53,257 nt of DNA from Candidatus Vogelbacteria bacterium. Its GTDB lineage: Bacteria > Patescibacteriota > Minisyncoccia > Phycocordibacterales > JACOZG01. Below are positions 7,531-48,025 of the stretch, in pieces. The DNA lies in NCBI GenBank assembly GCA_016181465.1, contig JACOZG010000021.1, forward strand, positions 1 through 53,257, given 5' to 3'. Position numbers and translations under genes: made by a program. Below the pieces are notes generated by a model. It ran no database searches. It was not told where the DNA came from and worked only from the letters and a program-made list of their open reading frames with translations. Every line of letters begins with the position of its first letter. Positions within the stretch are counted from its first letter, which is position 1.

Positions 7531-7956
7531 GTGGCTTCTTTTGCCTTTCTTATAATTGGGGGTTTTTTATTACTAAATATAATTGTTGTTGGGTTTTTGC
7601 TTGCTTTTAGGATTAAACCGATTGCTAACTTTCTCGCTTTACTTCCTGAAACCTCATTCGATATTTTAAATACTTGGTTAGATGTGTTAATTGCGACTTT
7701 GTTACTTCCCTTGTTACCAGCAATAACTTCTCGATTACTATACCCCGTTCGCATTAGAAAAACATGGTTTTATTCTATAATCCCCGTGGCTATTTCCGTC
7801 ATTGCATATAATTTTTTTCCAAAGTCTTGGTGGTTAATGCTTTTATTGTCAACGACTGCGGTCGGATTTATTATTGGTAGATTGATTGACAAAAAAGAAC
7901 AAGGGAAAATTATCGCCGATACAAATTGGAATCTTGAAGCCGAGACCCGGGCTTGA
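7531..7956 (+). CDS. Hypothetical multi-pass membrane protein
   Basis: 141 aa with about 4 hydrophobic helices in an AT-rich segment. Its 3' end overlaps tRNA-Thr by 19 nt, so the true end and the reality of the gene are uncertain. Confidence 0.45.
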   Translation: MASFAFLIIGGFLLLNIIVVGFLLAFRIKPIANFLALLPETSFDILNTWLDVLIATLLLPLLPAITSRLLYPVRIRKTWFYSIIPVAISVIAYNFFPKSWWLMLLLSTTAVGFIIGRLIDKKEQGKIIADTNWNLEAETRA

Positions 7957-8010
7957 ACCGGGGACCTGCGGTTTACGATACCGCCGCTCTACCAGCTGAG
8001 CTATCTCGGC
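7938..8010 (-). tRNA. tRNA-Thr (anticodon CGU)
   Basis: The reverse complement reads GCCGAGA-TA-GCTCAGCTGGTAGAGC..GCGGT-ATCGTAA-ACCGC..GGTTCAAGCCC..TCTCGGC-T, a 73-nt cloverleaf. Confidence 0.9.
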
Positions 8011-8456
8011 CTACTAGCGAACAATAAACGACCCTCCTTTACCCTTTTACTCAAAACTCTATTCTTTCTACCATTTCCGCGGTTAAGCCCAGCGTATGTG
8101 GGAGTCAAAGCATCACAATTTGGACAAATTAAACGAAGGTTGGCTTCAATATTATTTCGCCAGTTACCATCAATGTGATCAGCAACCAATGGAACCTCAC
8201 CAGTCTTGAAATTGATCTTTGACCATCCGCACAAACAACACCTGTTTCCAAACTTTCCTCGTAAATACCGTTTGATGTAGGACGAGACCGTACCGATACT
8301 TTGCAACCCGCTCGTTTCCCCAGCTCTCCATTTTCTAATGTACAACCGATGTTGGAATTTAATCTGACATACATTACTGCAATATTTATATTGTGCACGC
8401 GCCGGTTCTTTACCACAAGTTAAACACCTTCTTCTAGACATCTTGGGTACTGGCAT
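8001..8456 (-). CDS. HNH endonuclease
   Basis: 151 aa. It has Cys-rich zinc-ribbon pairs (CLTCG, CCLCGW) and the HNH core ADHIDGNWRNNIEANLRLICPNCDA. Its 3' end overlaps tRNA-Thr(CGU) by 10 nt. Confidence 0.85.
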   Translation of the reverse strand: MPVPKMSRRRCLTCGKEPARAQYKYCSNVCQIKFQHRLYIRKWRAGETSGLQSIGTVSSYIKRYLRGKFGNRCCLCGWSKINFKTGEVPLVADHIDGNWRNNIEANLRLICPNCDALTPTYAGLNRGNGRKNRVLSKRVKEGRLLFASRPR

Positions 8457-8536
8457 ATGACTAACTAATTGTATGTCTTATGACGACCAGTGTCAAAGGT
8501 AAAAATGGTTGGGCGAAATAAGATTCTGGCGCCGAA

Positions 8537-8609
8537 AGCCGTTGGGCGGGATTGAACCGCCGACCTCGCGCTTACCATGCGCGTGCTCTACCAACTGAGC
8601 TACAACGGC
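8537..8609 (-). tRNA. tRNA-Thr (anticodon GGU)
   Basis: The reverse complement reads GCCGTTG-TA-GCTCAGTTGGTAGAGC..CGCGC-ATGGTAA-GCGCG..GGTTCAATCCC..CAACGGC-T, 73 nt. Confidence 0.9.
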
Positions 8610-8651
8610 TTCCTCCATAATTTAACACGATTGTTAGAACTAGACAAAAAC

Positions 8652-8680
8652 TTGACAAAAATAACTGGATATGCTAACCT
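8652..8680 (+). promoter_or_regulatory. Sigma70-type promoter with extended -10
   Basis: TTGACA at 8652-8657 is followed by a 17-nt spacer and then TGcTAACCT (TG at 8672-8673, -10 at 8675-8680). Confidence 0.55.
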
Positions 8681-8754
8681 ATAATAGACGCTGGATTGTC
8701 GGTTGATGGTCAATCAGCAAAACCAGCTAAGGTCCTCAAAATGGAGGAAAAGCC

Positions 8755-8871
8755 ATGATTCTGTCAGGACCCTTCGGAGATTGCACGCTGGACGAGATCA
8801 GTTGGGGCGGCCCCCGGGCCGAGCTCTATCTCGCGGACCTGCTCGGTCAGGACCCACCGACTGACGAGTAG
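8755..8871 (+). CDS. Candidate 38-aa small protein (may instead be part of a structured ncRNA)
   Basis: GGAGG sits 7 nt upstream of ATG 8755. My translation is MILSGPFGDCTLDEISWGGPRAELYLADLLGQDPPTDE*. The ORF is bracketed by its own promoter and terminator and is below the ORF-track size cutoff. Confidence 0.35.
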   Translation: MILSGPFGDCTLDEISWGGPRAELYLADLLGQDPPTDE

Positions 8872-8894
8872 CGAGGACGGGGGAAAGAAATTTA

Positions 8895-8934
8895 GGGCGG
8901 CGCCACACGGTGCCGCCTCTTTGCGTATTTTTTG
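8895..8934 (+). terminator. Intrinsic terminator
   Basis: GGCGGCGCC (8896-8904) pairs with GGTGCCGCC (8909-8917) around an ACAC loop. The tail is TCTTTGCGTATTTTTT. Confidence 0.75.
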
Positions 8935-8960
8935 AGCTTCTGGCACAATGTAAGATAGAT

Positions 8961-9032
8961 TGCGGGGTAGAGCAGTGGTAGCTCGTCGGGCTCATAACCC
9001 GGAGGCCGTTGGTTCGAATCCAACCCCCGCTA
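8961..9032 (+). tRNA. tRNA-Met (CAU), initiator type
   Basis: TGCGGGG-TA-GAGCAGTGGTAGCTC..TCGGG-CTCATAA-CCCGG..GGTTCGAATCC..CCCCGCT-A. It shows a 1:72 mismatch (U:U), an A11:U24 pair, and three G:C pairs closing the anticodon stem. Confidence 0.85.
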
Positions 9033-9056
9033 TTAGGAAGAGCAAGACGTTTTCTT

Positions 9057-9129
9057 GTCGGGGTAGCTCAGTTGGTAGAGCACGGGACTCATAAGCCCGC
9101 GGTCGTGGGTTCAAGCCCCACCCCCGACA
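9057..9129 (+). tRNA. tRNA with CAU anticodon, elongator type (Met, or Ile2 if lysidine-modified)
   Basis: GTCGGGG-TA-GCTCAGTTGGTAGAGC..CGGGA-CTCATAA-GCCCG..GGTTCAAGCCC..CCCCGAC-A. It has a C11:G24 pair and a paired 1:72. Confidence 0.85.
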
Positions 9130-9132
9130 TAG

Positions 9133-9207
9133 GCGGGCGTAGTGTAGCCTGGATAACACGTCTCCCTGTCACGGAGAAGACCGCCGGTTCAAATCCGGTC
9201 GCCCGCG
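9133..9207 (+). tRNA. tRNA-Asp (anticodon GUC)
   Basis: GCGGGCG-TA-GTGTAGCCTGGATAACAC..TCTCC-CTGTCAC-GGAGA..GGTTCAAATCC..CGCCCGC-G. Confidence 0.9.
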
Positions 9208-9242: not shown

Positions 9243-9707
9243 GTGAGTCAATTATCGAAAAAACTGATCCGGCTTGGCTTCGTGGCCTTGATCACGATCA
9301 TTCTCTTTACCCAAGTTTTTTCTCTGGTTGTCGTTCATGGAAAAAGTATGGAACCGACTTACCGCGAGAACGACCTTGTGCTAGTCAATCGCTTAAGCTA
9401 CTTCGCTGGACCACCCGAGCGCGGCGAGATCGTGGCGATTAAATTCGCCGGACGGAGCCTGATGTTGCTAAAAAGAATTATTGGTTTGCCCGGCGAGACC
9501 GTCATAATCAGCGATGGCCAGATTTCGATTAACGGCACGGCTCTCGCCGAACCATATCTTATTTCTCCCCTCCCCTGGAATCTGCCGGCTCGAGTTCTCG
9601 CCGCCGAAGAATATTTTGTGATCGGTGACAATCGGCGACAAGCGATAGAGGAACATTTCTTCGGCCGCGTTAAAGCCGAACAGATAGTCGGCCGAGCGCT
9701 ATGGTAA
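9243..9707 (+). CDS. lepB: Signal peptidase I
   Basis: 154 aa with an N-terminal TM helix. The catalytic Ser box is GKSMEPT, the Lys box is LKRIIGLPGE, and a GDNR box is present. The start codon is GTG. Confidence 0.85.
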   Translation: MSQLSKKLIRLGFVALITIILFTQVFSLVVVHGKSMEPTYRENDLVLVNRLSYFAGPPERGEIVAIKFAGRSLMLLKRIIGLPGETVIISDGQISINGTALAEPYLISPLPWNLPARVLAAEEYFVIGDNRRQAIEEHFFGRVKAEQIVGRALW

Positions 9708-9717
9708 GATTAAACCA

Positions 9718-10212
9718 ATGAACAAAACTTTAGCCATAATCATTTGTTCGCTTCTCGTCGTTGTCGGACTACTGACAATCTGGTATTGGCGAACTAACCC
9801 GGAGCGGCAAATTAGAAAAACTCTGACTACCATGGCTGAACTCGGCTCGTCGCCGGCCGGCGAATCGTCAATTGCTAAAGCCGTTAAGAGTCAGAAATTG
9901 GGGGAGTATTTTTCCGAAGACGGTTTTATCGAATGGCCGGGAGATGAAGTGATTCCGGCCGGACGCTGGACCGGACGCGAGCAGATCAACCAACAAGTGC
10001 TAGCGGCCAAAAACTCGGCCACTTACCAAGTATCAGTTGATGATCTAATTATTGAGACCCGGCGGTGGAACCGGTCAGCCGCCGCTGAATTTACCTTGGT
10101 CGTGCGGGAAGGGGTAAACACCTGGGCTTGGCTTGGCGCTACCCACCTCTTCAAAGATGGCCGGCGTTGGTCGGTAACTCAACTGATATTTGCGCCAATT
10201 TTAAGACGGTAA
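9718..10212 (+). CDS. Membrane-anchored hypothetical protein (possibly NTF2/SnoaL-like fold)
   Basis: 164 aa with an N-terminal TM helix (LAIIICSLLVVVGLLTIWYW). The fold guess rests only on size and an alpha+beta pattern. Confidence 0.55.
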   Translation: MNKTLAIIICSLLVVVGLLTIWYWRTNPERQIRKTLTTMAELGSSPAGESSIAKAVKSQKLGEYFSEDGFIEWPGDEVIPAGRWTGREQINQQVLAAKNSATYQVSVDDLIIETRRWNRSAAAEFTLVVREGVNTWAWLGATHLFKDGRRWSVTQLIFAPILRR

Positions 10213-10213
10213 T

Positions 10214-10780
10214 TCAGATAAAATTGAACTCCCGGAAGACGCGTTCGAAACGGTCAAGCGCCGCTCGCGCCTCGCGGCGCGTCAAGACAAACTGGCTGTC
10301 GTGGGCGATTTGATTTCTCGTCTTATGCGCCTCCCAAGCGTCTTGGAGCGAAAGGAAGTCGCTTGGCTCGATGGCCTTTAAGCGCTCGCCCAAATTTTCC
10401 CCGGGATAATTCATCGCTTGAACCATTTCATCGAGCATAATGTCAGCTTCAATGATCGCCTGTTTCCAGTCCGAGGGATTGTCCGAATCCATCACCTTAA
10501 TGAGTTTGGCCCAACGTTCGTCGCGGATAGTTTTGTCTGAACTGTCAGTCCGCACCAAATTCAGAAATCCACGCACCTCTTCTTTCCGCAAGTTGGTAAT
10601 TTTATAAATCAAAATCACAATGGCGGCGGCGAGAATGAGCGAGAGGGCAATCAACCAAACCTTGAGCGCCGTGAGTGATGAAAATAGCGCCACGAGAAAG
10701 GGCAAAATCCCAACCAGAAAACGATAAACCAGATTGAAAAAATACTCCAGATTGAGATAATTTGGTTCAAAGATTGGCAT
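10214..10780 (-). CDS. Hypothetical membrane protein
   Basis: The start was moved to ATG 10780 (MPIFEPNYL..), because the longer ORF overlaps the gatA 3' end. It has two TM helices and then a helical soluble domain, with a 14-nt overlap with gatA. Confidence 0.6.
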   Translation of the reverse strand: MPIFEPNYLNLEYFFNLVYRFLVGILPFLVALFSSLTALKVWLIALSLILAAAIVILIYKITNLRKEEVRGFLNLVRTDSSDKTIRDERWAKLIKVMDSDNPSDWKQAIIEADIMLDEMVQAMNYPGENLGERLKAIEPSDFLSLQDAWEAHKTRNQIAHDSQFVLTRREARAALDRFERVFREFNFI

Positions 10781-12212
10781 AGTGCTTGGCAATTTGGAAG
10801 AGCCGGCCTTCGCCGCCCGGCGGCGCCATAATCTGCAGGCCAAACGGCAAACCGCTCGCCGCTCGACCGGACGGAATCGAGATCGCCGGCAGACCGGCGA
10901 GATTGGCCGGGACAGTAAACAAATCTTCTAAGTACATCTGAACCGGATCGGCCAGACGCTCGCCGAGCTTAAAGGCCGGCGCCGGCGTGGTCGGCGTCAG
11001 AATAGCGTCCACCTGATTGAAGGCGGCGGCAAACTCACTCGCGATCGCCTGTTTAACGGCAAAGGCCTTAGCATAATAAGCGTCATAGTAACCAGCCGAG
11101 AGCGCGTAAGTGCCGAGGATCACTCGCCGTCTGACTTCCAAGCCGAAACCGTTGCCCCGCGTCGTCCGATAATCGTCAAACAGATCCTGCCCCGGAAAAT
11201 ACGAGCCGTAACGGATGCCGTCGTAACGAGCCAGATTGGATGAGGCCTCGGCCGGCATAATCACATAATAGGCGGCTAGGGCATAAGGAGCAGTCGGCAA
11301 ATCAATATCCATAATTTCATAACCGGCCGCGGCTAAACTGGCTGTCGCCACGGAAAAATTTTCGGCGCCGGCGCGGTTCAAACCCTGATCTAAGAAACGG
11401 CGCGGCACGCCAAGTTTAAATTTCTTAAATTTCTCAAGGTTCGACCTTGAGACTTTGGAAATTAAAGGTCGAACCTTTTCTGATAAAGAAGTAGAATCAT
11501 TCTCGTCTCGCCCCTTGATCACCTCAAAAATCCTTTCAACATCGTCCGCCGTCCGCGCTAACGGTCCAATCTGGTCAAACGACGGGGCCAGAGCGATCAA
11601 ACCAAAGCGCGACACCGCGCCGTAAGTCGGTTTCAAGCCAAGCACGCCGCAGAAAGCCGCTGGCTGACGCACCGAGCCGCCGGTATCCGATCCGAGGGCG
11701 GCGAGAGCGAGGCCGGCGGCGAGAGCCGCGGCCGAGCCGCCGGAAGAACCACCAGCCACGCGCTCGGGGTCATGAGGATTTTTGGTCGGACCAAAAGCCG
11801 AATTTTCGGTCGAAGCGCCCATCGCAAACTCGTCCATATTGGTCCGACCGAGGAAGACGGCGCCGGCGGCGCGCAGTTTCGCAATCACGGTGGCGTCGTA
11901 GGCCGCGGTGTAATTTTCCAGCATCTTCGACCCGGCGCTGGCGCGCCGGCCCTTGATCAAAATATTATCTTTGACGGCAATGGGCACGCCCTCAAGCGCC
12001 CGCAACGGTTCGCCCGAGGCCAAACGACGATCAATGGCCTCGGCGGCGGTTAAGGCATCGTCAAAAACTTCAAGGTAGGCATTGAGCCCGGGATTTATTT
12101 TCTCAATCTGTTTTAGATAATATTCGACGAGCTCGCTGGCGCGCCACGCGCCGCGAGCCAAACCCTCGAGCCACCGAGCAATCGTCAATTGCGAAAAATC
12201 ACGAACCGCCAT
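10767..12212 (-). CDS. gatA: Glu/Asp-tRNA amidotransferase subunit A
   Basis: Amidase signature GGSSGGSAAALAAG, and PIAVKDNI near the N-terminus. The start is set at ATG 12212 (MAVRDF..), because the longer ORF is out-of-frame read-through of gatC. It overlaps gatC by 14 nt. Confidence 0.95.
   Translation of the reverse strand: MAVRDFSQLTIARWLEGLARGAWRASELVEYYLKQIEKINPGLNAYLEVFDDALTAAEAIDRRLASGEPLRALEGVPIAVKDNILIKGRRASAGSKMLENYTAAYDATVIAKLRAAGAVFLGRTNMDEFAMGASTENSAFGPTKNPHDPERVAGGSSGGSAAALAAGLALAALGSDTGGSVRQPAAFCGVLGLKPTYGAVSRFGLIALAPSFDQIGPLARTADDVERIFEVIKGRDENDSTSLSEKVRPLISKVSRSNLEKFKKFKLGVPRRFLDQGLNRAGAENFSVATASLAAAGYEIMDIDLPTAPYALAAYYVIMPAEASSNLARYDGIRYGSYFPGQDLFDDYRTTRGNGFGLEVRRRVILGTYALSAGYYDAYYAKAFAVKQAIASEFAAAFNQVDAILTPTTPAPAFKLGERLADPVQMYLEDLFTVPANLAGLPAISIPSGRAASGLPFGLQIMAPPGGEGRLFQIAKHYANL
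11436..11477. repeat. REPIN-like inverted doublet inside gatA
   Basis: AAGGTTCGACCTT (11436-11448) and AAGGTCGAACCTT (11465-11477) are exact reverse complements with a 16-nt spacer. The doublet is translated in-frame as EKVRPLISKVSRSNLE. Confidence 0.8.
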
Positions 12213-12540
12213 TTTTGTCACCGAAGATCGCCTTGACCTTGAAGTAAGGGCCTTCGGTCGTCGGCGCGGCGGCGCGCAACTTCTCTGCCTCGGCGGCGGC
12301 CGCGCCGCCGGCAGACGGATTATCTTCCCGCAAAACATTAACTGGAACAGTTTTCCAAGATTCGACCTTAAGACTTTGGGTTTTAAAGGTCGAACCTTTT
12401 CCGGTCGGAGCGGCTTGTTTGAGCTGATCAACATAATCAAGAATCGCGCCGAGGTCATTGAGCAATCCGGCCTGCTCGGCCGTGGTCAAGTTAATCCGCG
12501 CCAGCGACGCTAATTGAGTCAGTTCTTTTTCTCCCATCAT
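12199..12540 (-). CDS. gatC: Glu/Asp-tRNA amidotransferase subunit C
   Basis: 113 aa. The N-terminal LASLARINLT..E......L..IL.YV..L and the later ..LRED.. segment fit GatC. It sits directly upstream of and overlapping gatA. Confidence 0.85.
   Translation of the reverse strand: MMGEKELTQLASLARINLTTAEQAGLLNDLGAILDYVDQLKQAAPTGKGSTFKTQSLKVESWKTVPVNVLREDNPSAGGAAAAEAEKLRAAAPTTEGPYFKVKAIFGDKNGGS
12357..12398. repeat. REPIN-like inverted doublet inside gatC (same family as the gatA copy)
   Basis: AAGATTCGACCTT (12357-12369) and AAGGTCGAACCTT (12386-12398). The spacer shares AGACTTTGG with the gatA copy. It is translated in a different frame as GKGSTFKTQSLKVESW. Confidence 0.8.
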
Positions 12541-12552
12541 TGTTTCAGTCTA

Positions 12553-14702
<2,150 letters not shown>

Positions 14703-19617: not shown

Positions 19618-19689
19618 CTTAAATTATAACACGCGCCTAACACACCACCCCCTGACTTATCCACCACCAGAGTTACCGGCAAGACCGGC

Positions 19690-19702
19690 AAGGTTAAACC
19701 TC
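19690..19702 (-). repeat. REP-like hairpin overlapping the RAYT stop codon, inverted relative to the upstream copies
   Basis: The plus strand reads AAGGTTAAACCTC. The minus strand reads GAGGTTTAACCTTGCCGG, matching 17 of 18 positions of the TCAAGGTTTAACCTTGCCGG unit at 20473-20536. Confidence 0.7.
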
Positions 19703-20380
19703 GACAATAGCATCGTCAAAATTTATCCACAAGTTCAGAAAATCATCGAAATCTTTGCGACTTTGAAAATAATTTGGGAAATCATCTGGGGTAAGAATTT
19801 TATTGTGTGATCGCGGTAAACCAGTGTAATAGTGGTAACTTGAATACTCGTAACCGTTCAAAAATTCTTTTGCGGTCTCTTTATTTCTAATCGTCTTTCC
19901 TTCCCAATCTTTAGGGTCAACAGTTTTCACCGGATTGAGATGAATATATGCCAGAAGATAATTTAGATAACGATCATTGTCCACATGCTGGGCTTTGAAC
20001 GTACTTTCAAATAAACCGCCCGTCCGTTGGTATTTTTTATTAAAATACATCGAATAACCAGTTTGGAGCTTTTGCATCATGAGAGAAATACCCTTATCTT
20101 CTTTTTCTCTCACTAACAAGTGGAAGTGGTTTGGCATTAAGCAATAGGCGCCAACATCAACTAAACGTTCGTTCAAACTAATTGGAATCACGTTGAAAAT
20201 ATTTTCGACATTCTGTCCCGGCCAATCGCTGGGGTGAAATTGCTCTTTGCTGTTAGCGAGATAGAGCGATGCGAGAAATCTAATGTGATCACGATGATCA
20301 AGAAAGGTTTGGCGTTTGTCAAAACCGCGGTTGTAAAGATGATAATACTCACCCGGGGCAAAAGAGAATTTCCTGGTCAT
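19694..20380 (-). CDS. REP-associated tyrosine transposase (RAYT; IS200/IS605-type Y1 HUH transposase family)
   Basis: 228 aa. It has YHLYNRG near the N-terminus, the HUH motif LMPNHFHLL, and the catalytic Tyr region YLLAYIHLNPVK. It is a single gene flanked by inverted REP-like hairpins. Confidence 0.85.
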   Translation of the reverse strand: MTRKFSFAPGEYYHLYNRGFDKRQTFLDHRDHIRFLASLYLANSKEQFHPSDWPGQNVENIFNVIPISLNERLVDVGAYCLMPNHFHLLVREKEDKGISLMMQKLQTGYSMYFNKKYQRTGGLFESTFKAQHVDNDRYLNYLLAYIHLNPVKTVDPKDWEGKTIRNKETAKEFLNGYEYSSYHYYTGLPRSHNKILTPDDFPNYFQSRKDFDDFLNLWINFDDAIVEV

Positions 20381-20407: not shown

Positions 20408-20536
20408 CTTATGTCAAGGTTTAACCTTGCCAAAACCACGGTAAAGAAAAACCGGCATTTTTGCCGGAATCTCTTATGTCAAGGTTTAACCTTGCCGGAG
20501 GCTACTTATGTCAAGGTTTAACCTTGCCGGAGGCTA
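20408..20536 (+). repeat. Three REP-like units CTTATGTCAAGGTTTAACCTTGCC; the last two form an exact 32-bp tandem
   Basis: Units lie at 20408-20431, 20473-20496 and 20505-20528. Segments 20473-20504 and 20505-20536 are identical (CTTATGTCAAGGTTTAACCTTGCCGGAGGCTA). Confidence 0.85.
20443..20467 (-). terminator. Intrinsic terminator after pilA, embedded between REP units
   Basis: The minus strand reads CCGGCA-aaaa-TGCCGG followed by TTTTTCTTT. Confidence 0.6.
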
Positions 20537-21448: not shown

Positions 21449-21496
21449 AACCTATTATATCACCTGGCTGGAAAAGGCAAGTGTGGATAAGAAGGA

Positions 21497-21600
21497 AACG
21501 CAAAACGTAAAGAGAAAAGCTAAAAATAACAGTTTAAAACTTAAAACATTGTTAATTTTGAGCTGTTGTTTAAAACTTTGCGCTTTTAACTTTAAACTTC
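21497..21600. repeat. AT-rich imperfect long palindrome, copy A (between pilC and the coiled-coil gene)
   Basis: It shares roughly 70 nt of clear similarity with 22866-22969 (..AACAGTTTAAAACTTAAAACATTGTTAATTTTGAGCTGTTGTTTAAAAC..). The left and right halves are imperfect reverse complements. Confidence 0.7.
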
Positions 21601-22864: not shown

Positions 22865-22865
22865 G

Positions 22866-22969
22866 GAAACGTAAAGCTAAAAACGAAAAACTTAAAACAA
22901 CAATTTAAAACTTAAAATATTTTGAATTTTGAGTTGTTGCTTTAAACTTTTCACTTTAAATTTTACACT
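22866..22969. repeat. AT-rich imperfect long palindrome, copy B (fills the pilT-pilC intergenic region)
   Basis: It occupies essentially the whole 105-nt spacer. The two roughly 48-nt arms are imperfect reverse complements, and the unit is similar to copy A. Confidence 0.7.
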
Positions 22970-24034
22970 TTAGAGTAGGCGGTCGAGGCCTTTGGGATTG
23001 AGCGAATAGCGGTAGGCGTTCTCGGAAGTAATCTCGCCGCGCTGAACCAATTCAGACAATGAGTGATTCAAATCAACCATGCCCTGATCCGAACCGGTCT
23101 CAATCACCACATCAATTTCCGGCGTTCGACCCTCACGGACGAGATTGGCGACGGCGGTGTTGTTGAGCAGGAGTTCATAGGCCGGAATCAGACCGCCGGA
23201 GACACGGGCAATAAGCCGCTGGGAAAAGATGCCGATTAAGGAGCCCGCGAGCTGAACCCGAATTTGTCTTTGCTGATTGGCCGGGAACGAATCAATGATC
23301 CGATCAATGGTCTGGGAAGCGGAGTTGGTGTGGAGGGTGGAAAGAATCAAGTGGCCGGTTTCGGCGGCGGTAACGGCCGTACTAATCGTTTCGGGATTCC
23401 GCATCTCGCCGATCATCGCCACATTGACATCCTGCCGGAACATTGAACGCAAGGCGATGTGGAAACTCTTGGTGTCGAAACGAACTTCGCGCTGATCAAT
23501 GATTGACCGGTCGGAAACGAACATATACTCAATCGGATCCTCAATGGTGATAATGTGCTCGGAACGTTCTTGATTGATCAGCTGGACCATCGCGGCCAAA
23601 GTGGTGGATTTGCCCTGGCCGACCGGTCCGACCACCAGAAAAAAACCTTGTTTCCGGCGGGCGAAATCGGCCAAGCGGTCCGGCAGATTGAGTTCGACGA
23701 GCGACGGTATCTTAGTCGAGATCAGACGGAAAGCCGCGCCGACAAAGCCCTTCTGGTAAAAAGCGTTGCAGCGGAAACGGACACCGGCGGCGACCGAGTA
23801 AGAAAAGTCAATTTCCTTCTCGGCCAGAAAAAGCTTTTTGTTGACATCGCTTAAGGCCTCGGTGACGAGCCCCATTGTGTCTTCCGCCGTCAGAATATTT
23901 TTCTTGACCACCGGGATCAAGTCGCCCGCCACGCGAATCGTCGGGTGCCGGCCGACGGTTAAATGAAGGTCTGATCCCCCTTCTTTGGTAACAATCAAAA
24001 CCAGATCCTCCAATTCGCGTTTGTAATCACTCAT
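22970..24034 (-). CDS. pilT: Twitching-motility (retraction) ATPase
   Basis: Walker A is GPVGQGKST, with ITIEDPIEY, the Asp box and the His box TGHLILSTLHTN. The start is set at ATG 24034 (MSDYKRE..), giving an 8-nt overlap with the receiver gene. Confidence 0.93.
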   Translation of the reverse strand: MSDYKRELEDLVLIVTKEGGSDLHLTVGRHPTIRVAGDLIPVVKKNILTAEDTMGLVTEALSDVNKKLFLAEKEIDFSYSVAAGVRFRCNAFYQKGFVGAAFRLISTKIPSLVELNLPDRLADFARRKQGFFLVVGPVGQGKSTTLAAMVQLINQERSEHIITIEDPIEYMFVSDRSIIDQREVRFDTKSFHIALRSMFRQDVNVAMIGEMRNPETISTAVTAAETGHLILSTLHTNSASQTIDRIIDSFPANQQRQIRVQLAGSLIGIFSQRLIARVSGGLIPAYELLLNNTAVANLVREGRTPEIDVVIETGSDQGMVDLNHSLSELVQRGEITSENAYRYSLNPKGLDRLL

Positions 24035-30610: not shown

Positions 30611-32731
30611 GTGGAAAAAGCCATCACCGAACATTTTCGGCTAAAACCGGTCCAAATCCAAGGCCTGAATAAACTCGGATTAAAAACGCTCCGCGATCTC
30701 CTCTACCACTTCCCCGCCCGCTACGAGCGGCCGGCGCCGGAAAAACTAATTCGGGAACTCCGCGCCGGCGAGACCGCGGCGATCCACGGCCAGGTAATCA
30801 AAACCAAAATCAGTCTGGCTTTCCGCAAAAAAATCCCCTTGGCCGAAGTGATCATCGAAGACGCCACCGGGCGGATTAAGGCCGTCTGGTTCCATCAACC
30901 GTATCTGGCCAAAAAAATTCATGAGGGCGAGTGGTTGAGGGTCAGCGGCAAGGTCAGCGCCAGAAAAGAACAACTCTATTTTGCCAACCCGTCGTTTCAA
31001 GCGGCGGCCGAAACCTCGATTTTCCAAAACACCGCCGCGCCGAAGTCCTCGTCTCTAACGCCGGTCTACCCGGAAACGCGGGGCTTATCGAGCGTCTGGT
31101 TTGAGTACACGCTCAAGCAAACGTTCGCCAGCGGCGCCGCGAGCGAACTCGACGACCCTTTGCCTGAAATGATCCGCGCCCGCTACCACCTGCTGGCGCT
31201 CGGTCAGGCGCTCCTCCTCATCCATCAACCGCGGCTGGAAAAAGAGGCCTTGGCGGCGCGCAAACGTTTTGCCTTTGAAGAAGTTTTTTTTATCCAACTC
31301 AAACGACTTAAAGACAAACTTGAGTATGGGCGCGGCGGCGCGCGGCGGATCGAGACTACCGAAGAAATCCTGACTGAATTTTTAAAACGTTTGCCCTTCG
31401 CGCCGACCGCGGCCCAACGCCGGGCCATCGGGCAAATTCTCGCCGACTTAGATCAAGACCGGCCGATGATGCGACTGCTCGAAGGTGATGTCGGCTCGGG
31501 CAAAACCGCCGTCGCCGCGGCCGCGGCTTACGCCGCGGCACGCGCCGGCTTGGAAACGACGTTTATGGCGCCGACCGAGATTCTCGCTCGCCAGCATTTT
31601 GAATCGTTCATTAGCAACTTCGCCGGCGACAATATCAATATCGGTCTAATCACCTCAAGCGAATGCCGCAAATTCCCGTCCAAGCTAGACCCTAACAAAC
31701 ACACGCACATCTCGCGGGCCCAACTCTTAAAGTGGGTGAAGACGGGCGAAATTCCCATTGTCGTCGGCACGCATTCCTTAATCCAGAAAGCCGTCGCCTT
31801 CAAGAGTCTGGCTTTGGCGGTGATAGACGAGCAGCACCGCTTTGGTGTCAAACAGCGCGCCGCGTTGGTAAAAAAGGGCGGCGGCCGAGCGCCGCACCTC
31901 TTGTCGTTGACCGCCACGCCGATCCCGCGAACCTTGGCGCTCACGGCCTACGGCGATCTGGACCTGACGCTTTTGGATGAACTGCCGCCGGGCCGGAAAC
32001 CGATCATCACGGAAATCGTAATGGAAGAAAAAAGAAACGAGGCCTATCGGAAAATCAAAAAAGAGCTTGAACTGGGACGGCAAGCCTTTATCATCTGCCC
32101 GCGAATTGATCTGCCGGACCCGGCCAAAGCGCTCGCCCTTTACGCTAAATCAGCCAAACAAGAAGCGCGCCGGCTCCAAGAAAAAATTTTTCCCGAGTGG
32201 AAAATCGGTCTGCTCCACAGCAAACTGCGCCCGAAAGATAAAGAGCAGGTGATGGCCGACTTCCAGGGCGGCGCCGTCCAGATCCTCGTCGCCACCTCGG
32301 TGGTGGAAGTGGGCGTTAATGTGCCGAACGCCACGGTCATCGTCATCGAAGGCGCCGAGCGCTTCGGCTTGGCCCAACTGCATCAACTTCGCGGCCGCGT
32401 CTGGCGCAGTCACCATCAGGCCTACTGTTTTTTGTTCACTGACGCTACTTCGGCTAAGATCATTGAACGATTGAAGGCGATCCAAACCGCCAAAAACGGT
32501 TTCGAGCTGGCCGAGCTTGATTTGAGACTGCGCGGCGCCGGCTCCCTGGCCGGCCCTAAGCAGTGGGGTCTTTCCGATCTCGGCATGGAGGCCCTGCAAA
32601 ATCTGAAAATGGTCGAGGCGGCGCGGGCGGAAGCGCGAGCGATGCTCACTGAAGATCCGGAACTAAAAAAAAATCCGATAATCCGCGAACGTCTTGCCGC
32701 GACCGCTAATCAACCGATTCATTTCGAATAA
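30611..32731 (+). CDS. recG: ATP-dependent DNA helicase RecG
   Basis: 706 aa with a wedge/OB N-domain and helicase motifs GDVGSGKT, DEQHRFGV, SLTATPIPRT and QLHQLRGRV. The start codon is GTG. Confidence 0.95.
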   Translation: MEKAITEHFRLKPVQIQGLNKLGLKTLRDLLYHFPARYERPAPEKLIRELRAGETAAIHGQVIKTKISLAFRKKIPLAEVIIEDATGRIKAVWFHQPYLAKKIHEGEWLRVSGKVSARKEQLYFANPSFQAAAETSIFQNTAAPKSSSLTPVYPETRGLSSVWFEYTLKQTFASGAASELDDPLPEMIRARYHLLALGQALLLIHQPRLEKEALAARKRFAFEEVFFIQLKRLKDKLEYGRGGARRIETTEEILTEFLKRLPFAPTAAQRRAIGQILADLDQDRPMMRLLEGDVGSGKTAVAAAAAYAAARAGLETTFMAPTEILARQHFESFISNFAGDNINIGLITSSECRKFPSKLDPNKHTHISRAQLLKWVKTGEIPIVVGTHSLIQKAVAFKSLALAVIDEQHRFGVKQRAALVKKGGGRAPHLLSLTATPIPRTLALTAYGDLDLTLLDELPPGRKPIITEIVMEEKRNEAYRKIKKELELGRQAFIICPRIDLPDPAKALALYAKSAKQEARRLQEKIFPEWKIGLLHSKLRPKDKEQVMADFQGGAVQILVATSVVEVGVNVPNATVIVIEGAERFGLAQLHQLRGRVWRSHHQAYCFLFTDATSAKIIERLKAIQTAKNGFELAELDLRLRGAGSLAGPKQWGLSDLGMEALQNLKMVEAARAEARAMLTEDPELKKNPIIRERLAATANQPIHFE

Positions 32732-32740
32732 ATTCATGGC

Positions 32741-32775
32741 AAGGCGAGACCTTGCCACGGGCAAGGTCTCGCCTT
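32741..32775. repeat. REPIN-like doublet (class AAGGCGAGACCTT) between convergent genes
   Basis: 32741-32753 AAGGCGAGACCTT and 32763-32775 AAGGTCTCGCCTT are the same arms as the ligA copy at 13854-13889. The doublet probably doubles as a bidirectional terminator. Confidence 0.8.
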
Positions 32776-32779
32776 GATA

Positions 32780-33874
32780 TTAAAAAACGGAAAAAGCACT
32801 GTCGCTCAAATCACCGAGCGGCAGTTGCAAACTGGTGATTTTAATTAGGTAATCACCGCCAGCGAGAAGTGCGGTCGGCACAACCCAGTTGTAGGCGCCG
32901 GCCGCGGCCGGAAGAGAAACCGCGATCGTCCGCACCGGCAGATTGGGATAGGCGGCGCGGACAAGGAAGATTGAGACGGTCTCGACGCCGACGGCGCGCC
33001 AGGTAATTGCCAGATTCGCGCCGCGCGCCGCGCGCTCGCCGCCGTTCGGCGAAAGGACAACCAGAGATGGCGTTTGCCCGGCCGGCGAAACAATTTTAAT
33101 CGCGCCGCTTTTGGCGCAAACCGCCGAGCCAAAATAACAAATCTGCAAGCGATAATCGCCGTTTGGCGGGATCAGGTCGTAAGCGGTCTGGCCAACAGTC
33201 CAACTGAAGGAGCCGGTATTCGGCGCCTGGGCCGCGAGCAAATACGGCCAGTTGTTCGCCGTATTAATTAGATTGATCGCTAGGGAGCCGTTGCCGTTCC
33301 CCTGCCATTCGATCGCGCGTTCCTGGCCGCGGGTTAAAGTCTCGCCGCCGGCCGGACTTAAAATTTTCAACTCACTGGTTGGCGCGCCGACCGTCAAGGT
33401 GAACACGGCGTCGCTCTCGTCACACAGATTGAACGGGTAAAAATAGCAGACGCGGAGACGATACGAACCGGCCGGCGCGTTGGCGCCGGAAAGCAATTTA
33501 CCGGCCGGCCAAACATAAAGACCGGTGTTGGGCGCGCCGGAAAATACGGCGTAAGCCGGAATCGATCCCGTCACAACACTCGGGACAAGCCAGAGATTGA
33601 CCGCAGTGTTGGTGTAATCCGTTTGCCAGCGGATCAAACGAGAAGTGCCAATTGTCCAACTCTCGCCGCCGTTGGGAGAGATGACCGCGGGCGGCTGGCC
33701 AGAAAGAGTAGGTAAAGGCGGCCGCGATTGCAAAAGGAGCAGTTGGGCTTGCAATTTCTGGACCAGTTGCTGCAAAAGCAGAATTAGAGTCTCTTGGTTA
33801 GCCGGAGCCGCGGCTCGCGCCGCGGCCGGCAAAATTAAACCAATGAATAAAATAATGACTAAAAACTTTTTCAT
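32780..33874 (-). CDS. Secreted repeat protein (three SPxGGE..W..G....I.W modules)
   Basis: The start is set at ATG 33874 (MKKFLVIILFIGLILPAAARA signal peptide). It has a Leu/Gln coiled segment and then three Kre9/KNH-like repeats, each ending in ..Y.L.(V/I)C. Confidence 0.7.
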   Translation of the reverse strand: MKKFLVIILFIGLILPAAARAAAPANQETLILLLQQLVQKLQAQLLLLQSRPPLPTLSGQPPAVISPNGGESWTIGTSRLIRWQTDYTNTAVNLWLVPSVVTGSIPAYAVFSGAPNTGLYVWPAGKLLSGANAPAGSYRLRVCYFYPFNLCDESDAVFTLTVGAPTSELKILSPAGGETLTRGQERAIEWQGNGNGSLAINLINTANNWPYLLAAQAPNTGSFSWTVGQTAYDLIPPNGDYRLQICYFGSAVCAKSGAIKIVSPAGQTPSLVVLSPNGGERAARGANLAITWRAVGVETVSIFLVRAAYPNLPVRTIAVSLPAAAGAYNWVVPTALLAGGDYLIKITSLQLPLGDLSDSAFSVF

Positions 33875-33908
33875 TACCCAATCATACCTCCGAGCCGTCA
33901 CCGAATGC

Positions 33909-33931
33909 AAACCCCGCCAGAGGCGGGGTTT
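33909..33931 (-). terminator. Hairpin terminator after the large surface-protein gene
   Basis: AAACCCCGCC-agag-GGCGGGGTTT, a 10-bp stem. Confidence 0.6.
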
Positions 33932-33934
33932 GCC

Positions 33935-33947
33935 AAGGGCTGCCCTT
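33935..33947. repeat. Single REP-like hairpin AAGGGCTGCCCTT
   Basis: It has the AAGGG-N3-CCCTT architecture, as in the arms at 14263-14296. It is intergenic. Confidence 0.5.
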
Positions 33948-33973
33948 GGTAAATGAGTGGTGGGGTGTAATTT

Positions 33974-37679: not shown

Positions 37680-37886
37680 ACCAATATGACCCTAGCATCG
37701 AAAACAAAAAACTCCCCATTAGAGAAGTTCTTTGCTTGCCTCGCGTTGCCTAACGCAAAGTCGGGCAGATCGCCTGTGGATAAACTTGATTCCCATTTTC
37801 TTTTATGTATACTTAGAATGTCTTTCGGTTTTTTCGACCGGAAGGGCATAACATCCAAGAGCAACCCTCCGCGAGGAGGGTTGCTT

Positions 37887-38486
37887 TTATTTGTTTCCCC
37901 TTTCCTTGTCTAATTCTGCTCTGTGTTTCAATTCTTTTCCCCAAATCCCATCAACATTAAGAATGTCAGTGTATCCATCCGCCCCGGTCCTTAGTTCCTC
38001 AGACACATTATTCCTGGAAGAAAAAACAAAAACTCTTTTACCATGTTTCCTTAAATAAGTAATCAATGGAAGAAAATCGGAATCCCCCGTAAAGAAAACC
38101 GCCGTCCCGTATTTCTTTAGATGATGAAGTGAATCAATAGTAATTTCCACATCCATATTTCCTTTTTCTTCTACAATATTTCCTCGCTCGGTTAAGACGT
38201 TGATTCTCTTCAATTCCTTTTTTACAACAAAAATCCCCAGTCCCTTCTTAAGAAAAGTAAAGAATTTATGTTTACCATCTAAGCTGTACTTTCTTGTACC
38301 TTCTGCCGGATACGCAGTATAGTAAAACACTTTAATTGAAGTTCCATTAAACTTTTGCTTGATATATTCAGTTGTCTTAGCGTAATCCAAAAATTTACTT
38401 TTCGTTTTCTGCGCCGCCCATAAATTAGAGGCATCTATAAAAACATAAATCATACCCGCCTTTTGCTCGACCGGAGATTGTTCCAT
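37887..38486 (-). CDS. NYN-domain (LabA-like) protein, putative RNase
   Basis: Matching segments are ..VFIDASNLW.., ..KGNMDVEITIDSL.. and ..AVFFTGDSDFLPLITYLRKHGKRVFVFS... The alternative start is M12 (ATG 38453). Confidence 0.75.
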   Translation of the reverse strand: MEQSPVEQKAGMIYVFIDASNLWAAQKTKSKFLDYAKTTEYIKQKFNGTSIKVFYYTAYPAEGTRKYSLDGKHKFFTFLKKGLGIFVVKKELKRINVLTERGNIVEEKGNMDVEITIDSLHHLKKYGTAVFFTGDSDFLPLITYLRKHGKRVFVFSSRNNVSEELRTGADGYTDILNVDGIWGKELKHRAELDKERGNK

Positions 38487-39650: not shown

Positions 39651-39754
39651 GTCACACATAATTTTCTGCTGAAAATTTGCGCGACCCCGCCTCACTCGCC
39701 TCCGCTCGTTCCGGCTTTCAATTCCCGCCGACATTCCATATCCCAAACGCGCAC

Positions 39755-39782
39755 AAAAAACTACCCATTAGGGTAGTTTTTT
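39755..39782. terminator. Bidirectional terminator hairpin
   Basis: AAAAAACTACCC-atta-GGGTAGTTTTTT. Confidence 0.7.
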
Positions 39783-39791
39783 GGTGGCGTT

Positions 39792-41261: not shown

Positions 41262-41422
41262 TTTTCATTCAAGACAAATAGCCCCTCGACTCTCGCCTGC
41301 GGTGAGCGCAGTCGAACCGCTCGGGACATTCGCCTCGTTCGCACGACAAAAACTCGATCCCTTGGTTTTGGTCGAGTGGTTTACCATGAGCGAGTCCCGA
41401 GTTTATCGAGGGGCGAGTCGAA

Positions 41423-41801
41423 TGGAGATGCCGGGAATCGAACCCGGGTGCAAGGAGGAAACAAAGGTGAGTCTACCGATCTAGCCGATTTTGAATTTTG
41501 ACCGAGAACCGTCGAAAACGGCAAAATCGCTTCTCGGCGAGTCTCTTGAGTTTCGGTTACTTAGTGAGACGCTAAATTCCCTATCCCGAAGATTATGACA
41601 CCCGTTATCCCCTATCGGAAGTCAGGAAAACGGACGCCGGTTTAAGCGTAAGCGAAAACCGGAGCAAAAGCGCGGGCGAACCCGTCCTTTACTTTAGAGA
41701 ATAAGTTGGCACTTATTCGATGGCTCGTTAGATTAGCGAGTTACGAGCGCGCTCGACCGGCACACATTTTTTTAAACTCCTTGTCTAGGCCGATCATCCC
41801 C
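41423..41801 (-). ncRNA. ssrA: tmRNA (SsrA)
   Basis: The 5' end is GGGGATGATCGGCCTAGACAAGG and the 3' end is ..GGGTTCGATTCCCGGCATCTCCA. The acceptor stem has G3:U70. An internal tag frame GCC AAC TTA ..GCT TAC GCT TAA (41710-41642) ends ..FAYA*. It lies next to smpB. Confidence 0.9.
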
Positions 41802-47658: not shown

Positions 47659-48025
47659 AAAAATTTTACTGCTTTTCGTTGTAATTTTGAGCTTTGCGCT
47701 TTTAGCTTTACGTTTGGCATCTCGAGAGGGCCAGGACGCGGCCGCGCTCGCCGATTTCGCTCAATGCTTGGCCGCGCGCGGCGCCGTGATGTATGGCGCC
47801 AACTGGTGCCCGCACTGCCAGGAGGAAAAGACGGCCTTCGGCGCCGCCTTCCGGTTCATCAATTATGTCGAATGTCCGGATGAACCAAAGCGGTGCCTCG
47901 CGGCCGGAATCGAGAATTATCCGACCTGGATTTTTTCGGACGGCCGGAAGTTTGTCGGCCGGCAAGGTCTGGAACGGTTGGCCGAAGCCAGTGGTTGCAT
48001 TTTACCAACCCCGCTTGAATCATGA
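47651..48025 (+). CDS. Secreted thioredoxin-fold protein (CPHC active site)
   Basis: It has the signal/anchor MSKKILLLFVVILSFALLAL and then ..YGANWCPHCQEEK...YPTW... The ATGAGTAA overlap links it to the upstream stop. Confidence 0.8.
   Translation: MSKKILLLFVVILSFALLALRLASREGQDAAALADFAQCLAARGAVMYGANWCPHCQEEKTAFGAAFRFINYVECPDEPKRCLAAGIENYPTWIFSDGRKFVGRQGLERLAEASGCILPTPLES
47672..47716. repeat. Partial copy (C) of the AT-rich pil-operon repeat, inside the signal-peptide coding region
   Basis: TTGTAATTTTGAGC..TTTGCGCTTTTAGCTTTACGTTT matches TTGTTAATTTTGAGC..TTTGCGCTTTTAACTTTAAAC in copy A at 21550-21597. Confidence 0.6.

Follow-up and report, generated by a model that had tools for sequence, protein, structure and literature searches.

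The 53,257-nt contig JACOZG010000021.1 of Candidatus Vogelbacteria bacterium (assembly GCA_016181465.1, Patescibacteriota), hereinafter the window, carries two near-identical inverted doublets of short hairpins embedded in the coding sequences of gatA and gatC, two subunits of the tRNA amidotransferase GatCAB. These elements are probably repeats of the repetitive extragenic palindrome (REP)/REP doublet (REPIN) type that belong to a widespread system of Patescibacteria tied to a vertically inherited Y1/HUH transposase similar to REP-associated tyrosine transposases (RAYTs). The element is a pair of short hairpins with a CAAGGT/ACCTTG stem and a 3-nt loop, arranged in inverted orientation with a 29-nt register, and the pair can form a 13-bp hairpin. 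The genomes of Patescibacteria are among the smallest and most compact in bacteria, and repeats would be expected to be purged from them; here, a transposase-linked hairpin repeat persists in such genomes largely inside essential genes, where it is read in whichever phase it happens to occupy.

Inverted doublets in gatA and gatC

The arms of the gatA doublet, AAGGTTCGACCTT at 11436-11448 and AAGGTCGAACCTT at 11465-11477 on the plus strand, are exact reverse complements separated by 16 nt. The gatC copy combines the arm AAGGTCGAACCTT (12386-12398) with AAGATTCGACCTT (12357-12369), which contains a single mismatch that becomes a G·U pair on the sense strand. The spacer core AGACTTTGG is common to both doublets, and the two copies are 86% identical across 51 nt, spacer included (family D12 of the repeat search). 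Both genes are located on the minus strand, and the codons over the element are AAG GTT CGA in gatA and (A)AA GGT TCG in gatC, so that the same DNA is read in two phases, as EKVRPLISKVSRSNLE in phase 0 and as GKGSTFKTQSLKVESW in phase 1, respectively. These observations agree in full with the original prediction, made from the letters of the window alone, which described exact gatA arms 16 nt apart, a near-identical gatC doublet with one mismatch and a shared core, and a single element read in two frames of two genes; the coordinates and both translations given there are exact. The assignment to a REPIN-like inverted doublet family likewise holds because two inverted REP-type hairpins fold as one long hairpin, and hairpins with the same stem flank a nearby Y1/RAYT-like gene.

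When up to two mismatches are allowed, the motif has 12 matches in the window compared to 1.71 expected, and none of 100 shuffled sequences reaches this number. At the RNA level, the predicted fold is a 13-bp hairpin for both doublets, with -18.8 kcal/mol (z = -4.2) in gatA and -17.1 kcal/mol (z = -2.55) in gatC. Altogether, there are 5 doublets in the 53 kb of the window, 4 of which are located in frame in three adjacent genes, namely ligA (two doublets), gatC and gatA. The gatA frame is also open for about 80 codons 5' of the start codon, through gatC and its doublet (10767-12458, a 563-codon open reading frame [ORF]); the gatC doublet is therefore open in two same-strand frames at once, and such a frame could mislead gene callers.

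The original prediction had further suggested mapping the inserted loop onto a structure model, which was done for GatA with AlphaFold2. The model built from a 111-sequence alignment, which replaced an earlier one from 17 sequences that was too poor (mean predicted local distance difference test score, pLDDT, of 57.9), has a pLDDT of 92.6 and a predicted TM-score (pTM) of 0.93. The only weak internal blocks are residues 251-260 (pLDDT 54) and 261-270 (72), and the doublet-encoded peptide, residues 249-262 of P0001, coincides with this sole internal low-pLDDT stretch. The model thus fits a flexible surface loop that replaces the normal linker, and the encoded peptide would presumably be neutral.

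Filled, decayed and empty sites in related genomes

Comparison of orthologous sites, as envisaged in the original prediction, indicates that the segments are derived insertions because filled, half-deleted, collapsed and empty sites are all found in close relatives (the compared loci are denoted here by L numbers). The gatA site is filled in the window, L001, L005 and L016, and, as judged by the peptide, also in the homologues P0003 and P0007. In L064 and L065, this site is half-deleted, with the second hairpin alone remaining, and in L003 it is element-free and contains an unrelated 30-nt linker instead. The gatC site is filled in the window, L003, L064/L072 and L005, and in L001 it is collapsed to AAGGTTC|TTGG, 27 nt shorter. 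The two copies vary independently: L001 has the gatA copy without the gatC copy, and L003 shows the reverse. Among the ligA doublets, the one at 13853-13890 corresponds to a clean insertion of 36 nt in frame, which the window shares with its closest relative L064 alone, and the site at 14261-14298 is filled in L001, L005, L064 and L065 and nearly empty in L003. The "empty" gatC site of L001 and ligA site of L003 keep arm fragments and hence are deletions rather than virgin sites. Neither the clean ligA insertion of 36 nt nor any other filled/empty pair compared shows a target-site duplication.

The extent of the gain depends on the reference. Relative to close relatives without the element, the gatA segment adds 9 residues; relative to distant solved GatA structures, the net gain is only 4 residues because the segment replaces a pre-existing variable linker. 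The gatC segment adds about 9 residues. Accordingly, of the earlier claim that both copies are insertions in variable linkers, the linker location stands; relatives show presence/absence polymorphism at both sites, and the gatA case is better described as replacement of a linker than as a pure insertion of 16 residues. The gatA element persists among homologues down to 67% protein identity. Its signature peptide is found in 5 of 120 GatA homologues, all with at least 67% identity, and in none of 4,920 shuffled proteins. In L005, the gatC-site element is read in phase 0 (QKVRPFPPKVLRLNL), as opposed to phase 1 in the window; given that the phases differ between gatA and gatC and even within the same gatC site, the conserved unit is the DNA rather than the peptide.

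An assembly artefact, or an ancestral protein linker encoded by DNA that is palindromic by chance, is an explanation to which we assign next to no probability. The only circumstance in its favor is that the contig comes from a metagenome-assembled genome. The same elements occupy the same sites in independent NCBI, Logan, JGI and ENA assemblies, which argues against the artefact that the original prediction had named as a refutation. In addition, the peptide is confined to the closest 5 of the 120 GatA homologues, and the DNA is read in different phases.

Two observations on individual gatA genes deserve mention. In L005, positions 8860-8990 within gatA contain three stacked element types, a AAGGGTTACCCTT/AAGGGTAACCCTT doublet, a single AAGGTTCGACCTT hairpin and a AAGGTTAAACCTT/AAGGTTTAACCTT doublet, which together add about 30 residues and point to an insertion hot spot at this site. 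In L064, gatA is called as two ORFs (9637-9942, 101 aa, and 10001-11191, 396 aa), which reflects either a frameshift or stop codon in the N-terminal part or an assembly error.

A Y1/HUH transposase gene bracketed by the same hairpins

A gene for a Y1/HUH transposase is located in the window 7 kb from the gat doublets and is flanked on both sides by hairpins that share the CAAGGT…ACCTTG stem with the doublets, the loop alone being different (Table 1). The gene and the bracketing hairpins constitute a REPtron-like unit. The protein matches the PF01797 (Y1_Tnp) profile with 39.6 bits (cut-off 23) and belongs to a family of at least 7,700 homologues whose sole annotation is "transposase". Across the homologues examined, the HUH histidines are invariant, as is the tyrosine of the YIHLNP motif.

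Each of the homologues examined, which have 43-84% identity and come from L001, L003, L005, L064/L072, L032, L013/L017, L082 and L083, has such hairpins next to its gene, and the flanking copies share an extended (T)GTCAAGG…CCTTGAC(A/T) sequence. In L013/L017, the transposase gene is flanked by ACAAGGTTCGACCTTGT, identical to the arm of the gatA and gatC doublets, and in L083 the flanks CAAGGTCTCGCCTTG and TGTCAAGGCGAGACCTTGACA (CAAGGCGAGACCTTG) are the arm of the ligA and intergenic doublets of the window. In L032, a full doublet is located directly 5' of the transposase gene. The transposase occupies a conserved slot in a type IV pilus operon, between the genes for a pilin and the prepilin peptidase, in the window, L001, L083 and L084, and the synteny is kept in genomes where the proteins are merely about 53% identical.

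Distribution of the doublets across genomes and host genes

The doublets are widespread: a scan of 185,579 species genomes (596 Gb) with the pattern AAGGTNNNACCTT-N16-AAGGTNNNACCTT, in which the loops were unconstrained, yielded 58 loci compared to about one expected, nearly all in Patescibacteria. Spread beyond this phylum is not established because labels such as "Saccharibacteria" and "Gammaproteobacteria" cannot be relied upon for several loci; L060 and the Vogelbacteria-like L004 are one and the same contig, and the doublet of L019 occupies the same RecJ site as in L009 and L059 from Patescibacteria. The register is fixed at 29 nt in every locus. Of the 61 doublets, 40 have loop triplets that are exactly reverse-complementary to each other, compared to 1/64 expected, and 12 have loops that are direct repeats. 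In several genomes, copies are found on 3 contigs.

Another 16 metagenome contigs contain the exact TCG/CGA variant of the gatA and gatC doublets, with related spacers, and these copies occupy at least 10 other host sites. This distribution bears on the possibility that no mobile family exists and that the two gat copies arose by local duplication or conversion from gatA to gatC (they are 921 nt apart), or that the palindromes formed independently by template switching. Within the window, this variant is indeed confined to the adjacent gatA and gatC genes. Elsewhere, however, it occurs together with a related spacer in RuvC, TsaD, RecR and class II aminoacyl-tRNA synthetase genes and near PilC, in unrelated contigs and genomes, and flanks the transposase gene of L013/L017; moreover, the gatA and gatC copies are present and absent independently of each other. 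We consider such local copying to be hardly credible.

Doublets were counted as intragenic when they were located 20 codons or more inside an ORF of at least 150 codons. By this measure, 52-54% of the doublets that are at least 300 nt away from a locus end are intragenic compared to 75-78% for random positions in the same loci. Doublets that fall within a few codons of the beginning of a stop-to-stop frame (DnaG L034, L026, L044, L052, and PilC L076/L079) were left out of this count because the true start codon may lie downstream. All three phases are used, resulting in peptides of the forms KVRPL…RSNL, (K/Q)GxTL…KVxP(W/L/C) and xRSDL…QGRTL. We also considered, and rejected, the possibility that the element is designed to be stop-free: the mean number of open frames is 2.5 of 6 compared to 3.3 for random positions in the same loci. 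Since the doublets are not unusually free of stops, their survival in frame looks like the result of a filter on insertions rather than a designed property.

Besides GatA, GatC and LigA, the hosts identified with Pfam include RecJ (2 sites in 5 genomes), UvrD/PcrA (2 sites), RecR (4), class II aminoacyl-tRNA synthetases (4), GatB (2), TsaD, TGT, PolA, RecG, RuvC, Dus, KsgA and NUDIX proteins, along with an IscS-like aminotransferase (2 copies in one gene) and a giant surface protein (2 copies). The doublets mostly fall inside the Pfam domain spans of the host proteins. Host families that act on DNA, tRNA or rRNA account for 15 of 21 hosts compared to 4 of 20 random long ORFs from the same loci (Fisher p = 0.0016; p = 0.008 without the genes of the window itself), in a small sample that was classified by hand and in which three host ORFs remained unclassified. 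Enrichment in DNA replication and repair genes alone is not significant (p = 0.13).

Two groups of loci illustrate the placement of the copies. The Patescibacteria genome JBBUBJ01 has four GCC/GGC (GTC/GAC) doublets, all intragenic: two in a gene for an IscS-like aminotransferase (L055, 35-76 and 761-802), one in UvrD (L054, 5111) and one in DNA polymerase I (L020, 7081), and the UvrD copy is found at the same position in L057. The RecJ OB-domain site is filled in three genomes (L009, 1716; L019, 4070; L059, 2716), with direct loops (CCG/CCG and CGG/CGG) in two of these and inverted loops (CCG/CGG) in the third. Apparently, individual hairpin loops can flip.

The skew of the hosts towards genome maintenance and nucleic acid enzymes, together with the type IV pilus genes that adjoin the locus in the window and in relatives, might suggest that in a lineage with natural competence the motif serves as a DNA uptake signal. 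The uptake sequences of Neisseria and Pasteurellaceae are likewise present as inverted pairs, in frame, with a bias towards genome maintenance genes, a placement bias that is documented, for example, in PMC2817400. We find this explanation very unlikely. The density of 7 AGGTNNNACCT hairpins in 53 kb is far too low compared to the hundreds to thousands per genome reported for uptake sequences, and the conserved unit is a doublet of 42-51 nt with a fixed register and a conserved spacer rather than a word of 9-12 nt. In addition, the doublets are tightly associated with the Y1 transposase gene, and the loops vary within a single genome.

Proposed mechanism of dispersal

By analogy with TnpA of IS200/IS608 and with the E. 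coli RAYT, the doublets are most likely mobilized by the Y1 protein. The enzyme would recognize the hairpin on single-stranded DNA, cut it and rejoin the ends, so that doublets would now and then be copied to new sites. In very compact genomes, many of the landing sites would be coding, and the surviving copies would be those that are in frame, free of stop codons and located within tolerant surface loops or linkers. Such copies would be translated as a passenger peptide whose sequence is set by the phase, and then would be inherited vertically, decaying through in-frame deletion.

Several observations weigh against the assignment of the doublets to a REP/REPIN system with this transposase. 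The scan detects only 2-4 exact-stem doublets per species genome, and classical REPIN populations comprise tens to hundreds of copies. No GTAG or CGTC tag was found next to any copy. The only NCBIfam match of the transposase, NF047646 (REP_Tyr_transpos), scores 50 bits, below the cut-off of 80. A single-sequence search of the PDB sequences with the transposase gave nothing significant, the solved RAYT 4ER8 was not reached even with a profile, and the match of the profile to ISDra2 TnpA, in the HUH region, has an E-value of only 0.12. Judged by its sequence, the transposase is a member of a divergent clade. Within the 53 kb of the window, the transposase flanks have TTA/TAA loops and the doublets have TCG/CGA, GCGAG and GGCGACC cores; because of this difference, the cognate enzyme of the window copies is not pinpointed there. 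Three further 20-kb transposase loci contain no doublets besides the flanks. Most orthologous sites look vertically inherited, and no recent transposition was caught among the compared relatives. Finally, translation of the segments into protein is inferred from frame and stop-codon conservation.

Concerted change of the arms

The arms of the doublets change between genomes and stay complementary. At the gatA site, the arms are TCG/CGA in the window and L001, TAG/CTA in L016 and TAA/TTA in L005. The ligA site at 14261-14298 shows the arm variants GGGCGACCC, GGGCTACCC, GGCCTACCC and GGACTGTCC, each with its exact complement, in five genomes, and the site at 13853-13890 has GCGAG/CTCGC in the window and GTGAG/CTCAC in L064. 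Across orthologous sites, 143 of 143 cells are paired, and both-sided changes are observed in 5 of 13 pairs. The covariation score is 0.515 compared to 0.135 in shuffles, none of 500 of which reaches it, and no more than 0.06 in slid registers. The sole two departures from pairing are G·U on the sense strand. Thus, the arms evolve in concert, and selection on the hairpin, conversion within the hairpin and re-insertion at hot spots all fit as the cause.

The first of these causes corresponds to an explanation under which the intragenic hairpins are kept for a function of their own, either in RNA, within the ligA-gatC-gatA transcript and other mRNAs (stability, pausing or processing), or in single-stranded DNA at the replication fork, which would be compatible with a REPIN origin. 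The preserved complementarity of the arms, the G·U character of both departures from it, the persistence of the gatA-site element down to 67% protein identity and the skew of the hosts towards DNA, tRNA and rRNA enzymes, a bias also reported for other REPs (Di Nocera et al., 2013), all speak for such a role. Nevertheless, close relatives have lost, halved or collapsed sites with no apparent harm, and covariation can also result from copying, conversion within the hairpin or re-insertion at hot spots such as the stacked gatA elements of L005. The two G·U cases are not significant, there is no Rfam match, the host sample is small, and the bias is not significant for replication and repair genes alone. 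On balance, we regard an independent function of the hairpins as rather unlikely.

A related, equally doubtful idea is that the domesticated Y1 transposase and the doublets form a long-lived system in Patescibacteria, in which either selection or homogenization by the enzyme actively preserves the intragenic copies as hairpins. If so, the preserved copies would act as RNA, as single-stranded DNA or as basic loops on the protein surface, with a preference for enzymes of DNA, tRNA and rRNA, for example, all three GatCAB subunits, LigA, PolA, RecJ, UvrD, RecR, RecG, TsaD and TGT. Proteins and transcripts in these minimal genomes would then be modified by such copies throughout the phylum, and the copies would be more than mere selfish passengers.

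Comparison with known repeat systems

REP/REPIN-RAYT systems are the subject of work by Nunvar (2010) and by Bertels and Rainey (2011, PMC3116915), and of that by Ton-Hoang (2012) on REPtrons. The doublets resemble these systems in that paired inverted palindromic units form a long hairpin and that a PF01797 Y1/HUH gene is bracketed by the same units; the transposase is syntenic and apparently vertically inherited, and the genome-specific variants each match the flanks of some homologue. There are also differences. The foot of the hairpin lacks a GTAG/GT[AG]G or CGTC tag, its place near the transposase being taken by the (T)GTC…GAC(A/T) extension; the stems of 5-7 bp, the loops of 3-5 nt and the rigid 29-nt register are distinctive; copies are few, roughly half of them are intragenic, and the transposase falls under the NCBIfam RAYT cut-off. 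RAYTs have been described as single-copy, vertically inherited and REP-bracketed, and REPs occur in frame inside RAYT genes themselves (Quentin et al., 2018, PMC6006769). Patescibacteria are not mentioned in that survey, and a literature search, which does not prove absence, retrieved no paper that ties RAYTs, REPs or coding palindromes to the candidate phyla radiation (CPR)/Patescibacteria.

The claim of the original prediction that coding REPs in core genes are unusual was overstated because there are precedents, in particular, REPs in frame within ORFs (Di Nocera et al., 2013, PMC3733652) and the Rickettsia palindromic elements (RPEs; PMC10969869). In the former study, Di Nocera, De Gregorio and Rocco described in-frame GTAG/CGTC REPs and REP dimers within ORFs that encode about 20-30 residues in Opitutus, Thauera, Xanthomonas, Rickettsia and other genomes. 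The hosts included UvrA/B/D, RecB, Pol I, DnaE, DNA ligase, tRNA synthetases and tRNA-modifying enzymes such as TruB, and the bias towards replication and repair was remarked upon. Insertions were found at or near the same site in orthologues, and some REPs supplied the stop codon of the flanking ORF; intragenic copies were seen only in several species, and the families are described as located predominantly between ORFs (Di Nocera et al., 2013). The doublets described here are similar in that units and dimers are in frame in bona fide ORFs and missing from shorter orthologues, and that the TAA loop of a hairpin provides the stop codon of the transposase gene. They differ in that about half of the copies, and in some genomes every copy found, are intragenic, and the tags and sequences are unrelated. 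Because the host bias of 2013 is reproduced with unrelated REPs, this unexplained bias becomes testable in a second, independent system.

RPEs occur in a reduced genome, where they interrupt unrelated housekeeping genes in frame (Ogata et al., 2000, 2002; reviewed in PMC10969869), and are believed to give rise to exposed surface segments with which the proteins can still function (PMC10969869). Elements of the RPE-1 type are about 100-150 bp long and encode a conserved peptide in one frame in Rickettsia, in contrast to the 42-51 nt elements in three phases in Patescibacteria, where, in addition, a candidate transposase adjoins the elements. [quoted passage not shown] For the doublets, unlike MITEs, no target-site duplication is seen, the arms are hairpin REP units rather than terminal repeats derived from insertion sequences, and the enzyme is a Y1 HUH protein.

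Thus, coding palindromes themselves are known, and what differs here is the phylum, the untagged type of REP, the divergence of the transposase clade and the large proportion of intragenic copies. Palindromes that code for protein had mainly been known from Rickettsia and from a small number of REP-rich Proteobacteria and Verrucomicrobia; they are now extended to a huge uncultivated phylum, and the candidate enzyme comes from a Y1 clade of 7,700 or more members. Inserts of 14-18 residues and strong hairpins also affect alignments, phylogenetic markers, gene calling and the assembly of CPR genomes.

Other doublets and repeats in the window

The features discussed above and the additional copies are listed in Table 1. 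An inverted-repeat scan of the window (arms of at least 11 nt with at most 1 mismatch, spacer of at most 30 nt) gave 42 sites compared to 7-14 in shuffles and brought up three more doublets, two in ligA and one at 32739-32777. Among these, the ligA doublet just before the adenylation motif has a predicted RNA fold of -31.2 kcal/mol (z = -7.9). The only doublet outside the ligA-gatC-gatA cluster occupies a classical extragenic REP position. At gathering thresholds, Rfam identifies only tRNAs and a transfer-messenger RNA (tmRNA) in the window, and no family matches the doublets.

Table 1. Doublets, hairpins and associated genes in the window.
Feature	Coordinates	Strand	Details
gatA, host gene	10767..12221	minus	annotated product P0001, 484 aa
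Inverted REP doublet (REPIN-like) in gatA	11430..11480		arms 11436-11448 and 11465-11477; read on the minus strand in phase 0: (E)KVRPLISKVSRSNL(E)
gatC, host gene	12199..12540	minus	113 aa
Second doublet copy, in gatC	12351..12401		arms 12357-12369 and 12386-12398; phase 1: GKGSTFKTQSLKVESW
ligA (NAD-dependent DNA ligase), two doublets	12553..14667	minus	start codon uncertain (14622 or 14667)
ligA doublet AAGGCGAGACCTT…AAGGTCTCGCCTT	13853..13890		encodes a 14-residue peptide; from the inverted-repeat scan
ligA doublet AAGGGCGACCCTT…AAGGGTCGCCCTT	14261..14298		just before the KxDG adenylation motif; 11-residue peptide
REP hairpin CAAGGT-TAA-ACCT, 3' end of the transposase gene	19685..19705		loop is the TAA stop codon of the gene
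Y1/HUH transposase, RAYT-like	19694..20380	minus	228 aa; HUH is H85-F-H87; catalytic Tyr in YIHLNP
Three REP hairpins (ATGT)CAAGGT-TTA-ACCTTG(CC), 5' of the transposase	20408..20536		20412-20432, 20477-20497, 20509-20529; repeat families D4, I7
Extragenic doublet, arms as in the 13853 copy	32739..32777		between convergent recG (ends at 32731) and ORF 32780-33910
Single intergenic hairpin CCAAGGGCTGCCCTTGG	33929..33953		same design

The window contains several other repeats. An AT-rich, partly palindromic family of about 100 nt (D3/D6, I3/I4) is present in intergenic spacers of the type IV pilus/type II secretion system cluster (21494-21599 and 22865-22970) and once at 47.7 kb (47659-47715), and its sequence is unlike that of the CAAGG hairpins. 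Two pairs of direct repeats, 36964-37019/39805-39860 and 37704-37739/39753-39788, are 82-83% identical and 2.0-2.8 kb apart; both pairs adjoin terminator-like hairpins (37857-37888 and 39753-39784) and may reflect a duplicated gene or cassette. Finally, the window contains an ordinary tmRNA gene (41420-41801) and an ordinary cluster of five tRNA genes (7938-9207).

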